Positions 1,100 through 32,574 of a DNA stretch of 64,000 nucleotides are shown one piece after another. Each line of letters begins with the position of its first letter. The stretch's first letter is position 1. Both the position numbers and the translations under genes were made by a program. Location: assembly GCF_003334355.1 (NCBI RefSeq), contig NZ_QOWP01000001.1, one strand, 5' to 3'. Under the pieces are notes generated by a model. It was not told the origin of the DNA, ran no database searches, and worked only from the letters and a program-made list of their open reading frames with translations. The DNA comes from Escherichia coli (GTDB lineage Bacteria > Pseudomonadota > Gammaproteobacteria > Enterobacterales > Enterobacteriaceae).

Positions 1100-1442
1100 A
1101 ATCTTTCCTCGCTTAAAAAACAAGACGCCTTATCATAGCAGCCAGCCTCTTGATACCCAATCTCTTGCTTCTGGAAAAACGTGGTAATAGAGAAAGAGGT
1201 TAATTTCATTTGGCAAAGGGAAGTATCATCAGCAAAATATTCGCTGTAGAGGTATCGAACTTCCTGACTTTTTACCCTATTTCCCATCCTGATGCGTAAT
1301 AATCCCAATTTATCACATTGATTTTATCGCCACTCATATTGATACGTATCACTGCCCCTATTCAGAGTCCTGTTTCGTATCATATCTGTGTTTTTTTAAC
1401 GTCATCACACTTCCTACCTCCCCTAACGCTTATCGTCGTTTC

Positions 1443-1458
1443 TGGCGTAAATCTTGCC
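1443..1458 (+). promoter_or_regulatory. Candidate sigma54 (RpoN) -24/-12 promoter upstream of xdhA
   Basis: TGGCGTAAATCTTGCC: TGGC and TTGC at the canonical 11-nt offset of the sigma54 consensus TGGCACG-N4-TTGCW, about 95 bp upstream of the xdhA ATG at 1553; the sigma54 activator ygeV is encoded adjacent. Confidence 0.5.
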
Positions 1459-5215: not shown

Positions 5216-6994
5216 TTATGTGTTTAACAACTCATATTTCTTAATCTTGCGATAGAGCGTAGCAATGCCGATGCCCAGTTCATCAGCAACTTGCTTCTTG
5301 CTGTTATGACGTGAAAGCACCTCGCGGATCATTTGCTTTTCCATCTCCTCCAGCGCCGTGCCGCCCGCATCATCGAGTGACAGGTGCGCCTCACTGACCT
5401 CTGTTACATCACTTTGCTCCGTTGTGCCATTATTCAGCAGATTTGGCGGCAATAGCGTGCTGTCGATAACTTCACCTGAAGGAACCACGTTAACCAGATA
5501 TTCCATCAAATTGCTTAACTCGCGCAGGTTTCCGGGCCAACGATGCTTACGCAATATTTCGACGACATCGGGAGCAATGCCAGGATAAACCGATCCCAGA
5601 CGACGGGTATGCAGATGTAAAAAGTAATGCACCAATAGTTCAATATCTTCCTGACGTTCACGCAGCGGTGGCAGAGTTATCGGGATAACATTAAGTCGGT
5701 AGAAGAGATCTTCGCGGAATTTACCTTCGGCAATGAACTGGGCCAAATTCTGATTAGTTGCAGAAATGATGCGAATGTCGACTTGTATTGGGCTACTGGC
5801 ACCAATCGGCAGAATTTCACGCGCCTCAATAGCGCGCAGTAATTTAGCCTGCAACATTAATGGCATATCACCTATTTCATCGAGAAACAGCGTGCCCGTA
5901 TTCGCCGCCTGAATCAACCCTGTTTTACCGTTGGCAGAAGCGCCAGTAAATGCGCCTTTAACATAACCGAACAGTTCGCTTTCCAGAAGCTGCTCCGGAA
6001 TCGCGGCACAGTTGATAGCAATAAAGGGTTTATTCCGTCTTCCGCTCAACTTATGGATTGCTCGGGCGACGACTTCTTTACCCGTGCCGCTTTCACCAAC
6101 CACCATAACGCTGGATGGGCTGGGTGCAATACGGCTAATGAGTCGTTTTAATTGCCGCATAACACGGCACTCGCCAACCAATTGTTCAATATGTGGTTCA
6201 TCAGGTGCATTTGCTACAGAAAAACTGGTATGCGATTGGTGAAATGCCATTAAAAATAATTGTCGGCCCTGAATGTTATGCAATTGACCAATGATTAATT
6301 CACTTTTATCGTCCCACGAAACAATATGCTGCATATGTCCATGAGTAAAATTACTCTCAAATGTTAATGGTCTGAAACGGATAGGTTTCCCAATAATATT
6401 ATTTTGTACAACACCAAGTGTTTTTAAGGCAGTCTGATTAACAAACTGAACCCGACTTTCATCATCAACAACTAATACGCCCTGATCCATATTATCGATC
6501 ATGGTCGCGAATATTTTACTGATGTTATCTCCTGGCCCCTGATCCTCCAGAAGTTTCGAAACAAAAATGGTGGATATATGGCGAACATAATCAGAAAATT
6601 CGCGTAAATTATCACTGATATGCTCTTGTTGCTCGTGGGTAACGGCAATCAAACTTATCACCCCAACACAACGATCCTGTAAAATGACAGGCGTACCCAG
6701 AAATGCTTTTTCGCGGCAATTTTCTTTACTATCGCAACCTTCGCAAAGGGGATCGAAGCGAGACTGTGTCACAACTTTTTCAGTTTTCGTTTCCAGGACG
6801 TGGCGGAGCAGGCGTGAGTTGCCGCTCAACTGGCGACCAAGAAACTTCCCATACGCGCCCGTTCCGGCAACGCGACACAAGTTTTCATCAACGATCTCAA
6901 CCTCAAGCTGCAAAACGCTGGCAAGCATTCTGGCAAAACGCTGAATTGTCGGTTGAATTTGCATCAATACTGACTGCGTAGTAGCAAGCTCCAT
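5216..6994 (-). CDS. ygeV: Sigma54-dependent transcriptional activator (enhancer-binding protein) with N-terminal sensory region
   Basis: 592-aa ORF; AAA+ Walker A GESGTGKE, sigma54-contact GAFTGA motif (GYVKGAFTGA), C-terminal Fis-type HTH (ELGIGIATLYRKIKKY). Confidence 0.93.
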   Translation of the reverse strand: MELATTQSVLMQIQPTIQRFARMLASVLQLEVEIVDENLCRVAGTGAYGKFLGRQLSGNSRLLRHVLETKTEKVVTQSRFDPLCEGCDSKENCREKAFLGTPVILQDRCVGVISLIAVTHEQQEHISDNLREFSDYVRHISTIFVSKLLEDQGPGDNISKIFATMIDNMDQGVLVVDDESRVQFVNQTALKTLGVVQNNIIGKPIRFRPLTFESNFTHGHMQHIVSWDDKSELIIGQLHNIQGRQLFLMAFHQSHTSFSVANAPDEPHIEQLVGECRVMRQLKRLISRIAPSPSSVMVVGESGTGKEVVARAIHKLSGRRNKPFIAINCAAIPEQLLESELFGYVKGAFTGASANGKTGLIQAANTGTLFLDEIGDMPLMLQAKLLRAIEAREILPIGASSPIQVDIRIISATNQNLAQFIAEGKFREDLFYRLNVIPITLPPLRERQEDIELLVHYFLHLHTRRLGSVYPGIAPDVVEILRKHRWPGNLRELSNLMEYLVNVVPSGEVIDSTLLPPNLLNNGTTEQSDVTEVSEAHLSLDDAGGTALEEMEKQMIREVLSRHNSKKQVADELGIGIATLYRKIKKYELLNT

Positions 6995-7363
6995 AGCTTT
7001 ACCTTCCAGACTTACTTAAAAGTCGATCATTGAAGACGTTGATGGTTCACAGATCATGATGATATTAACTCAGGCGAAATTGGCTTTGATAAAAACATAA
7101 GATTTTTATCATTTTCTAATGAAATTATGGAAGAGATATCACATTTCTATATCAATATGAGAATTACGGCGGTGAGTTTATCAAACTGAAGAGAGATAGC
7201 CTGCCCCTTTATCTTATTTCTGATACTTAGCAGCAAATAAATAACGCGATAAAAAAAGCCAAACGTTTTCGTATTTTACAAACAACCAGAAGCTGGCATC
7301 AATTTGTGATCAACCCCACACATTATCCGTCAAATTAGTCGTTTGCAGCCGCGCGGATAATTC

Positions 7364-7378
7364 TGGCACACTTATTGT
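7364..7378 (+). promoter_or_regulatory. Candidate sigma54 promoter upstream of ygeW (imperfect -12 element)
   Basis: TGGCACACTTATTGT: perfect -24 TGGCAC, with TTGT rather than TTGC at the -12 position at the correct spacing; about 90 bp upstream of ygeW, divergent from ygeV. Confidence 0.35.
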
Positions 7379-7469
7379 TAGTCCCAGGTATAGCTGTGAA
7401 AACACCAATCACTTTGGCAAGTCACAGTGAAATAAACCACTTTGCCTGTCATTCCACTACCGGGACTTT

Positions 7470-8717: not shown

Positions 8718-9914
8718 ATGTCCGTTTTCTCATTGAAGATTGATATCGCCGATAACAAATTTTTCAACGGCGAAACATCACCGCTCTTTTCGCAAAGCCA
8801 AGCCAAACTGGCGCGCCAGTTCCACCAGAAAATAGCTGGTTATCGCCCAACACCGCTTTGTGCGCTGGACGATCTCGCAAACCTTTTTGGTGTGAAGAAA
8901 ATTCTCGTCAAAGACGAATCAAAACGATTCGGTCTGAACGCCTTCAAAATGCTTGGCGGTGCGTACGCCATCGCTCAATTATTGTGTGAAAAATATCATC
9001 TTGATATCGAAACGCTGTCATTTGAGCACCTGAAAAATACCATCGGCGAAAAAATGACTTTCGCGACCACCACCGACGGCAACCACGGGCGCGGTGTGGC
9101 GTGGGCAGCACAGCAACTCGGACAGAATGCGGTGATTTACATGCCGAAAGGTTCTGCTCAGGAACGCGTTGACGCCATTCTGAACCTCGGTGCCGAGTGC
9201 ATCGTCACAGATATGAACTATGACGATACCGTTCGCCTGACCATGCAACACGCGCAGCAGCACGGCTGGGAAGTGGTACAGGACACGGCATGGGAAGGTT
9301 ACACCAAAATCCCAACCTGGATCATGCAAGGCTACGCAACCCTGGCAGATGAAGCCGTCGAGCAAATGCGTGAAATGGGCGTAACCCCGACGCACGTTCT
9401 GCTGCAAGCCGGTGTCGGAGCAATGGCCGGTGGTGTGCTGGGTTATCTGGTCGACGTCTACAGCCCGCAAAATCTGCACAGCATTATTGTTGAACCTGAC
9501 AAAGCTGACTGTATTTATCGCTCCGGCGTCAAAGGCGACATCGTCAACGTTGGCGGTGATATGGCCACCATCATGGCGGGCCTGGCCTGTGGCGAACCTA
9601 ACCCGCTGGGCTGGGAAATCCTACGTAACTGCGCCACCCAATTCATCTCCTGCCAGGACAGCGTTGCCGCATTAGGTATGCGCGTGCTGGGTAATCCGTA
9701 CGGCAACGACCCGCGCATCATCTCCGGTGAATCCGGCGCTGTCGGTTTGGGCGTTCTCGCAGCGGTTCATTATCACCCGCAACGTCAAAGCCTGATGGAA
9801 AAACTGGCGCTGAACAAAGATGCCGTAGTGCTGGTTATCAGTACTGAAGGCGACACCGACGTGAAGCACTACCGCGAAGTTGTCTGGGAAGGCAAACACG
9901 CTGTAGCACCTTAA
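8718..9914 (+). CDS. ygeX: Diaminopropionate ammonia-lyase (PLP-dependent)
   Basis: 398-aa ORF; PLP fold-type II sequence; recognised as E. coli YgeX/DpaL. Confidence 0.9.
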   Translation: MSVFSLKIDIADNKFFNGETSPLFSQSQAKLARQFHQKIAGYRPTPLCALDDLANLFGVKKILVKDESKRFGLNAFKMLGGAYAIAQLLCEKYHLDIETLSFEHLKNTIGEKMTFATTTDGNHGRGVAWAAQQLGQNAVIYMPKGSAQERVDAILNLGAECIVTDMNYDDTVRLTMQHAQQHGWEVVQDTAWEGYTKIPTWIMQGYATLADEAVEQMREMGVTPTHVLLQAGVGAMAGGVLGYLVDVYSPQNLHSIIVEPDKADCIYRSGVKGDIVNVGGDMATIMAGLACGEPNPLGWEILRNCATQFISCQDSVAALGMRVLGNPYGNDPRIISGESGAVGLGVLAAVHYHPQRQSLMEKLALNKDAVVLVISTEGDTDVKHYREVVWEGKHAVAP

Positions 9915-32139: not shown

Positions 32140-32574
32140 TTGCATCCCTTTCATTTAATGAGTTATGTCTTCTCAAATTTCGCGATGCAATAAACGGGCA
32201 TATATTAGGTAGCATGACCGTTTTAATTATAATTTTGCGACTGAGTTCAAATTATTGCCCCTCAAACTATGCCGCTTTCATTATTTCAACATTGCCGATC
32301 AAAAGAGCGCTATCCAGATAAAAACGATTAAATGCGAGAGTGCGACATGCCAGAATGATTAATGAAATATCAATATGAGAAAATTACAGATAATTCCATT
32401 GTCAGGTTCTCTTGTCATTTTCGTGGTTTAAGCACGATTATGTGATTGCCTCCGCAATTCCTGTCTCTAACTTCCCTTCCTCGCAAAAACTGGCACTCCA
32501 CGAGCATGTGTTTAGACAGTTTCATTAACGTAAACGGTTGCTTTTTACTCTGGCGGGCGAAAGGAGAAACACTG

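Follow-up and report, generated by a model that had tools for sequence, protein, structure and literature searches.

Which promoters does YgeV switch on in Escherichia coli, and through what kind of sensor is it gated? We addressed these questions in a 64,000-nucleotide stretch of E. coli DNA (contig NZ_QOWP01000001.1 of assembly GCF_003334355.1; hereafter, the window), which contains ygeV amid the genes of the urate cluster. Our analysis indicates that YgeV is an enhancer-binding protein (EBP) with the domain order GAF-PAS-AAA+-helix-turn-helix (HTH), lacking a receiver domain and orthologous to clostridial DioR. It probably activates the sigma-54 promoters of the urate cluster through TTATCA-N3-TGATAA enhancers, gated by a GAF domain with a cysteine triad. 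The gene itself is an already known one, and earlier papers and annotation cover both its sigma-54 class and its link to urate. The gene and its domains are located as follows.

5216..6994, minus strand: ygeV coding sequence, 592 amino acids (aa), ATG start; from the list of open reading frames (ORFs), 100% identical to annotated ygeV
6539..6967, minus strand: GAF domain, residues 10-152; from the AlphaFold2 (AF2) domain split and a PDB profile match to the Nlh1 GAF domain
6716..6745, minus strand: Cys triad C84-x2-C87-x5-C93 (CEGCDSKENC), in the part of the GAF domain that separates strand 73-75 from strand 97-105
6239..6523, minus strand: PAS domain, residues 158-252; from Pfam PAS_8, PDB profile matches and AF2 secondary structure
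5678..6181, minus strand: sigma-54 interaction AAA+ domain, residues 272-439; Pfam PF00158 (Sigma54_activat), E 2e-70
5411..5662, minus strand: AAA+ lid domain (AAA_lid_14), residues 445-528; Pfam PF25601, E 7.5e-21
5234..5353, minus strand: Fis-type HTH, residues 548-587; Pfam HTH_8, E 6e-13

At the DNA level this gene shows 100% identity to the ygeV annotated in E. coli PSS-12, and 5281 of the 5426 complete E. coli genomes contain a match. The initial annotation of this DNA, made from the letters alone, had placed an ORF at 5216-6994 and had described a sigma-54 AAA+ domain, a Fis-type HTH, an N-terminal region of about 280 aa and a purine-catabolic neighbourhood. The position of the ORF is real, with its strand now corrected to minus. 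Pfam and the motif positions bear out the AAA+ domain and the HTH: the Walker A sequence GESGTGKE occupies residues 300-307 (nt 6074-6097), the GAFTGA loop residues 347-352 (nt 5939-5956), and the Walker B sequence LFLDE residues 369-373. The AAA+ core is preceded by 271 aa, and the gene is flanked by xdhABC on one side and by ygeW-dpaL-ygeY-hyuA-arcC on the other, in agreement with the earlier description. The AAA+ domain with Walker A, Walker B and GAFTGA and the Fis-type HTH, together with -24/-12 target promoters that each have an enhancer palindrome upstream, place YgeV among the sigma-54 activators.

Which promoters are these? Four -24/-12 candidates in the window, at xdhA, ygeW, ygfK and ygfT, are exactly the sequences beneath published sigma-54 chromatin immunoprecipitation sequencing (ChIP-seq) peaks. 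A DioR-type upstream activating sequence (UAS) lies 110-215 bp upstream of all four promoters, which is the usual enhancer distance.

1310..1344: UAS-like sites upstream of xdhA, TTATCACATTGATTT (1310-1324) and, on the minus strand, TATCAATATGAG (1333-1344)
1442..1458, plus strand: xdhA sigma-54 promoter CTGGCGTAAATCTTGCC, identical to ChIP-seq site OS29
7149..7163, plus strand: UAS ATATCAATATGAGAA of the ygeV-ygeW spacer, located 214 bp upstream of the sigma-54 promoter of ygeW; agrees with the DioR motif as published
7178..7192, plus strand: weaker UAS-like site TTATCAAACTGAAGA in the ygeV-ygeW spacer, with two mismatches to TTATCANNNTGATAA
7305..7320, plus strand: CRP-like site TGTGATCAACCCCACA, read from the sequence
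7363..7379, plus strand: ygeW sigma-54 promoter CTGGCACACTTATTGTT, from the pattern scan; identical to ChIP-seq site OS30
16997..17011: perfect palindromic UAS TTATCATAATGATAA upstream of ygfK, from the pattern scan
17179..17195, plus strand: ygfK sigma-54 promoter GTGGTGCGATTGTTGCT, identical to ChIP-seq site OS31
32186..32202, minus strand: ygfT sigma-54 promoter TATGCCCGTTTATTGCA, ChIP-seq site OS32
32367..32381, plus strand: UAS ATATCAATATGAGAA in the ygfT-uacT divergent spacer, from the pattern scan

The exact 12-mer TATCAATATGAG, an imperfect inverted repeat of the form TATCA-N3-TGAGA, occurs three times in the window, each time in a regulatory spacer: at 1333-1344 (minus strand), 7150-7161 and 32368-32379. 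When up to two mismatches are allowed, the window holds 12 matches against 3.8 expected, and the degenerate pattern TATCANNNTGAKA gives 6 strand-hits against 0.17 expected. A peak of the RpoN holoenzyme in genomic systematic evolution of ligands by exponential enrichment (gSELEX) also falls in the ygeV/ygeW spacer. Two other site geometries, TGATA-N2-TATCA (1340-1351) and an everted TGATAA...TTATCA (7087-7111), were dropped in favour of the N3 palindrome, which is conserved across phyla.

Published expression data bear on the same genes. Added uric acid highly induces ygfK and ygfT, and glucose suppresses urate consumption. The expression of ygfT falls in a ygeV mutant, as cited in PMC10602906, which indirectly supports activation of sigma-54 transcription by YgeV, and ygeV is reported, in a second-hand citation, to be required for formate-dependent anaerobic urate degradation. 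The CRP-like site TGTGATCAACCCCACA is consistent with glucose repression and with the native Crp site that PMC12507026 mentions in the ygeV-ygeW spacer.

The UAS in the ygfT-uacT spacer is assigned to ygfT and possibly serves uacT too, a gene that is listed in the YgeV iModulon. A sigma-54-like sequence, TGGCACTCCACGAGCA, lies at 32491-32506 on the plus strand, 123 bp from this shared UAS, and faces uacT/ygfU. It was not found in the accessible part of the published sigma-54 ChIP-seq table, and we leave it unsupported as a uacT promoter.

The ygeV-ygeW spacer is AT-rich, and near the ygeV start it carries the everted repeat TGATAAAAACATAAGATTTTTATCA (7087-7111), which might have to do with ygeV's own promoter, with autoregulation or with bending of the IHF type. 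Inspection by eye showed no sigma-54 promoter for ygeV on the minus strand.

Is the enhancer known from other bacteria? DioR is a group of sigma-54 EBPs of the Clostridiales, whose regulon was predicted computationally and whose function is listed as "Unknown" (Nie et al. 2019, PMC6615313). The supplement of that paper gives ATTTATCAAAGTGATAAGT, ATTTATCATAATGATAAGG and TTATCATTTTGATAA as predicted DioR enhancers, and the C. difficile variants end in ATGAGAA. The extended UAS upstream of ygfK in the window, TTTATCATAATGATAAGG, corresponds letter for letter to the published C. botulinum ygeW site. Moreover, the C. botulinum EBP at the related locus L033 shares 37% identity with YgeV over 591 aligned positions (E 5e-138), including the Cys triad, and its HTH helix LGIGIATLYRK is identical to that of YgeV. 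The UAS and the promoter downstream of this EBP are the published DioR CBO2889 sites. Because of the full-length identity, the triad, the identical HTH helix and the CBO2889 sites, we conclude that YgeV is, as judged by sequence, the enterobacterial orthologue of DioR. This orthology and the TTATCA-N3-TGATAA UAS upstream of the sigma-54 promoters of the regulon are the features by which YgeV belongs to the DioR group. The two have the same domain order, triad and UAS, and their regulons overlap in dpaL, ygeW, ygfK, ssnA, ygeY, yqeB/C and xdh. They differ in that one half of the palindrome is degenerate (TGAGA) at several of the E. coli sites, and in the CRP site that E. coli has in addition. 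PMC6615313 analysed Clostridiales genomes, and no link between YgeV and DioR was found in the accessible part of its text.

How is YgeV gated? The Pfam matches to its N-terminus are weak (PAS_8 at residues 162-201, E 2e-6; PAS, E 2e-4; GAF at residues 65-126, E 0.03), and Response_reg has no match even at E<=10. An AF2 model of the sensor, built from 55 relatives (predicted local distance difference test, pLDDT, 88.6; predicted template modelling score, pTM, 0.72), consists of two domains, residues 10-152 and 158-252. In PDB sequence profiles, the first domain resembles the GAF domain of Nlh1, and the second the PAS domains of DhaR, WalK, DcuS and CitA (E 1e-8 to 1e-7). Among two-domain matches, Foldseek ranks the GAF-PAS sensor of E. 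coli DhaR first (E 6e-10). Residues 1-268 of YgeV accordingly have the GAF fold followed by the PAS fold. The initial annotation had called this region sensor-like rather than a phospho-receiver, and had named a receiver domain as the finding that would overturn its view; the Pfam search was run, and no receiver appeared.

This fold bears directly on a published name. In PMC9426417 (mBio 2022), YgeV was renamed IsrR and termed an "orphan response regulator". Because YgeV has no receiver domain, this label is wrong at the domain level, and the missing receiver match and the GAF-PAS fold together rule out a two-component or orphan response regulator. The wider proposal, that YgeV is an indole-sensing regulator of this kind, switched by endogenous indole, with the virulence genes of LEE (locus of enterocyte effacement) as its main targets, we regard as very improbable. 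The ygeV mRNA is indeed among those most up-regulated by indole in enterohaemorrhagic E. coli (EHEC), but the same paper shows transcriptional induction rather than indole binding, and terms direct LEE control an open question. Furthermore, what anaerobes conserve, namely the family together with its UAS and its neighbours, centres on the catabolism of purines and diaminopropionate.

The relatives of the sensor were collected by a phmmer search with residues 1-267 against a representative library of 1.84 billion proteins (E<=1e-3). It returned 862 proteins, mostly of 560-610 aa and thus similar to YgeV in total length, at 20-40% identity. Searches for protein relatives with the N-terminal fragment, or with an alignment of 55 sequences (A1), yielded mainly truncated proteins, few of them named. 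One relative alone carries a PF00072 label: P0009, from an 865-bp ENA contig, in which an in-frame fusion joins YgeV residues 1-178 to part of an unrelated response regulator. P0009 is almost certainly an assembly chimera, which explains the stray label, and we rejected this product of a short contig as a receiver-bearing relative of YgeV.

Does the resemblance to DhaR extend to its mode of sensing? DhaR, the activator of the E. coli dihydroxyacetone kinase operon, shares with YgeV the GAF-PAS-AAA+-HTH order without a receiver. It acts at a sigma-70 promoter. According to the titles of PDB entries 4lrx and 4lrz, DhaR is switched by the proteins DhaK and DhaL, and the GAF-PAS module of YgeV might by analogy sense a pathway enzyme (DpaL, YgeW or YgeY, for example, substrate-bound or free) by protein contact instead of a free ligand. 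DhaR(N) is not only the best two-domain structural match but also, for the PAS half, the closest sequence in the PDB, and DhaR is the only NCBIfam family that extends into the GAF half of YgeV. However, the identity between the two proteins is about 14%, and YgeV scores 230 against the cutoff of 551 in the DhaR equivalog model (NF008485). Sensing by protein contact also leaves the Cys triad unexplained, and we consider it improbable. For YgeV as a whole, the top NCBIfam model is PrdR (NF041552), with 386 bits against a cutoff of 795, matched through the PAS, AAA+ and HTH domains. YgeV was rejected as a PrdR, the Clostridioides proline reductase activator, since the score falls below the cutoff and the N-terminal match covers residues 156-206 only, so that the triad-bearing GAF half is unmatched.

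The most striking feature of the sensor is this triad. Among 85 aligned full-length representatives, chosen by phmmer blindly with respect to cysteines, conservation reaches 99% at each of C84, C87 and C93 but does not extend to C40 and C109. The only invariant columns of the 55-sequence alignment are G46, C84, C87, C93, G111 and N186. After the ORFs of 80 genome loci were added, the triad stood at 99% in 167 sequences and its C-x2-C-x5-C spacing never varied, although these ORFs had been chosen by a pattern that demanded the triad. Other conserved residues of the sensor in this larger set are D36 (95%), R41, T45, P102, E95 (86%) and Q122 (87%). In canonical GAF domains, the segment corresponding to the triad roofs the ligand pocket. 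The triad is kept in family members of about 468 aa that lack the PAS domain, and also in proteins of about 205 aa that consist of the GAF domain and the HTH only. Since it persists in both PAS-less and AAA+-less members, the GAF domain is the constant sensor module of the family.

What might the three cysteines hold? Their conservation among proteins of 20-40% identity suggests a metal or iron-sulphur (Fe-S) site, and a metal or Fe-S centre would be the most likely occupant of the YgeV triad; D36 and E95 may be additional metal ligands. GAF domains with cysteine-ligated Fe-S clusters have precedents in VnfA, for which a [3Fe-4S] cluster has been suggested and whose cysteines are needed for activation in vivo, and in CSK/Hik2. 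VnfA and AnfA of Azotobacter and CSK/Hik2 are, like YgeV, regulators with conserved cysteines in a GAF domain, and VnfA is a sigma-54 EBP as well. The cysteines of VnfA belong to the N-terminal portion of that protein, inside what the source paper terms its GAF regulatory domain, whereas those of YgeV lie between strand 73-75 and strand 97-105. NorR, another sigma-54 EBP of E. coli, has a GAF domain with a non-heme iron sensor. The N-terminal Fe-S motif of FNR is C20-x2-C23-x5-C29 plus C122. The spacing of the YgeV triad is thus that of FNR, which is a resemblance only, as the folds and contexts differ and YgeV has no conserved fourth cysteine. That the triad ligates an Fe-S cluster or a redox-active metal, and that YgeV and DioR would form an unrecognised class of cofactor-bearing GAF proteins gating anaerobic purine and diaminopropionate catabolism, is a proposal that we put forward tentatively, as something short of an even prospect. 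If it is true, the family would gate by oxygen or redox state, or would bind a diamine or ureido inducer through the metal, and YgeV would join the "anoxic" and "substrate present" signals in one domain.

To see which genes accompany the sensor, we compared 86 related loci, 80 from a genome scan and six fetched earlier, and located homologues of the E. coli cluster proteins within 10 kb by tblastn. The scan was seeded with six N-terminal sequences from Firmicutes (alignment A2), and its taxon sample is biased accordingly; the 80 loci belong to Clostridia, Tissierellia, Negativicutes, Desulfovibrio, Desulfobacterales, Desulfosporosinus, Spirochaetaceae and Fusobacterium, all of them anaerobic. 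The most constant neighbour is a DpaL homologue (49 of the 86 loci), typically encoded by the gene right after the EBP and often without xdh, ssnA or ygfK nearby. It is followed by an M20 peptidase resembling YgeY (38/86), XdhA (36/86), a UacT-like permease (27/86), YgfK (22/86), SsnA (21/86) and HyuA (21/86). The 86 loci hold 177 matches to the UAS pattern, distributed over 69 of them, where block-shuffled controls predict 8.1 (maximum 14), and the sites concentrate 200-400 bp upstream of the homologues of dpaL, xdhA, ssnA, uacT and ygeW. At locus L004, three palindromes and then the consensus TTGGCACCGTAATTGCAT precede dpaL. Two proteobacterial relatives with 35-40% N-terminal identity lie in complete uricolytic clusters, with the UAS motif in the equivalent spacers.

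The variant proteins have comparable surroundings. P0247 (L088 6001-6618), a 205-aa protein with the triad-bearing GAF domain and the HTH but without AAA+, lies beside PALP-hydantoinase-PALP genes. P0261 (L090 2632-4038), a 468-aa GAF-AAA+-HTH protein without PAS, is divergent from dpaL and an M20 peptidase gene. An exact UAS match is absent at both loci. At L005 and L007, the genes around the triad-bearing relatives are unrelated ones (for an ATP-grasp ligase and ThiI at the former; for serine dehydratase and NifU/Fe-S maturation at the latter) and there is no UAS match; the family is therefore not exclusively tied to the purine and diaminopropionate pathway.

Which molecule, then, would induce YgeV? 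One possibility, in line with the purine signal suggested in the initial annotation, is a purine (urate, 2,8-dioxopurine/isoxanthine or xanthine) bound directly in the GAF or PAS pocket, with the Cys triad purely structural. The strong induction of ygfK and ygfT by urate added to cultures would fit, but it cannot tell urate from its products. Purine permeases and the pathway's first enzymes are among the products of the regulon, and in the Desulfosporosinus loci xdhABC-ygfK-uacT come right after the EBP gene, without a dpaL in the vicinity. On the other side, about 13 fully flanked loci have dpaL only, with or without the M20 peptidase. Their 10-kb flanks hold no purine-acting enzyme, yet they keep the same conserved GAF residues and the UAS. 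We regard direct purine binding as possible though doubtful.

The same loci bring in a second candidate, a late intermediate of the pathway (2,3-diaminopropionate, 3-ureido-alanine/albizziin or ureidomethyl-hydantoin) that would act by product-type induction through the Cys-GAF module. Besides the constancy of dpaL, usually immediately downstream of the EBP, the PAS-less and AAA+-less variants remain beside genes of the dpaL-like, PALP or hydantoinase type, dpaL alone is the predicted target of C. tetani DioR (PMC6615313), and the biochemistry of the late steps is established in the literature. The argument is one of gene linkage, however: other pathway genes may lie past the 10-kb flanks, the ligand may have diverged between subfamilies, and induction of E. 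coli by diaminopropionate was not found in the literature searched. Taken by itself, this candidate too stays on the doubtful side. Because of the roughly 13 dpaL-only loci and the variant proteins beside dpaL-like and hydantoinase genes, a downstream catabolite (diaminopropionate, albizziin/ureido-alanine or ureidomethyl-hydantoin) is no less likely than urate or isoxanthine to be the inducer. In addition, the triad and the anaerobic hosts suggest a further redox, oxygen or metal input.

Based on these observations, we propose the following scheme for YgeV as a GAF-PAS-gated EBP. The controlled pathway is the reductive (2,8-dioxopurine) degradation of uric acid, which is anaerobic.

First, the Fis-type HTH of YgeV would bind the TTATCA-N3-TGATAA enhancers, in E. 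coli often of the form TATCA-ATA-TGAGA, upstream of the sigma-54 promoters of xdhABC, ygeW-dpaL-ygeY-hyuA-yqeA, ygfK-ssnA-ygfM-xdhD and ygfT. The N-terminal GAF-PAS module would gate the activity of the bound protein, the GAF domain with Cys84-x2-Cys87-x5-Cys93 being its constant element. This module probably couples activation to a metabolite from urate catabolism, and anoxic or reducing conditions are possibly a further input. An ATP-driven YgeV hexamer would then open the closed sigma-54 holoenzyme complexes through the GAFTGA loop, and CRP would add glucose repression at the ygeW promoter. The cofactor on the triad and the identity of the inducer are the parts of this scheme that we infer.

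Several points weigh against this scheme. The -12 element of the ygeW promoter is TTGT, not TTGC, and the UAS of xdhA and of ygfT/uacT depart from the palindrome on one half (TGAGA); the direct binding of YgeV to these predicted sites is something that we infer from their sequences. Since the sensor has no fourth conserved cysteine, the triad might serve as a structural Zn site, or might play no part in sensing at all. The anaerobe-only taxonomy of the related loci comes from a Firmicutes-seeded, biased sample. Finally, the PRECISE-1K iModulon is most active in baeR or cpxR knockouts exposed to ethanol, not with purines, and the EHEC study (PMC9426417) ties ygeV to indole and LEE expression; the scheme explains neither.

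What does the assignment of YgeV to this role bring? A substantial share of human urate is removed by the gut urate pathway. Probiotics against gout are being engineered to carry it, and the engineers currently bypass its native control. For the E. coli copy of this gut-bacterial cluster, the master switch appears to be YgeV, which now offers three handles: the orthology with DioR, a defined enhancer at four mapped sigma-54 promoters, and a GAF-PAS sensor with a three-cysteine site. In the literature searched, we found neither the orthology of YgeV and DioR with a shared enhancer mapped to four ChIP-verified promoters, nor the DhaR-like GAF-PAS fold assignment that contradicts the "orphan response regulator" label, nor any mention of the C-x2-C-x5-C triad of YgeV. 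The orthology with its enhancer mapping, the fold assignment and the triad are modest advances, which make the ligand question tractable and do not amount to a new kind of system.

The surroundings of the regulated genes complete the picture. The annotated order runs from xdhABC through ygeV, on the opposite strand, to ygeW-dpaL(ygeX)-ygeY-hyuA-arcC(yqeA), and farther along the cluster follow yqeB, yqeC, mocA, ygfK-ssnA-ygfM-xdhD, xanQ and guaD. Two near-palindromes of the UAS type lie within coding sequence, ATATCATCTTGATAT at 8993-9007 in dpaL/ygeX and TTCTCACATTGAGAA at 15607-15621 in yqeC; each may be a chance match, an enhancer within the gene or a roadblock. In strain PSS-12, a few kb upstream of xdhA, a stretch with IS1 and IS5 transposase, integrase, KilA-N and DUF4145 genes (L001 8348-14842) sits just beyond actS and a tRNA-Gly gene, and it looks like an element integrated at the tRNA.

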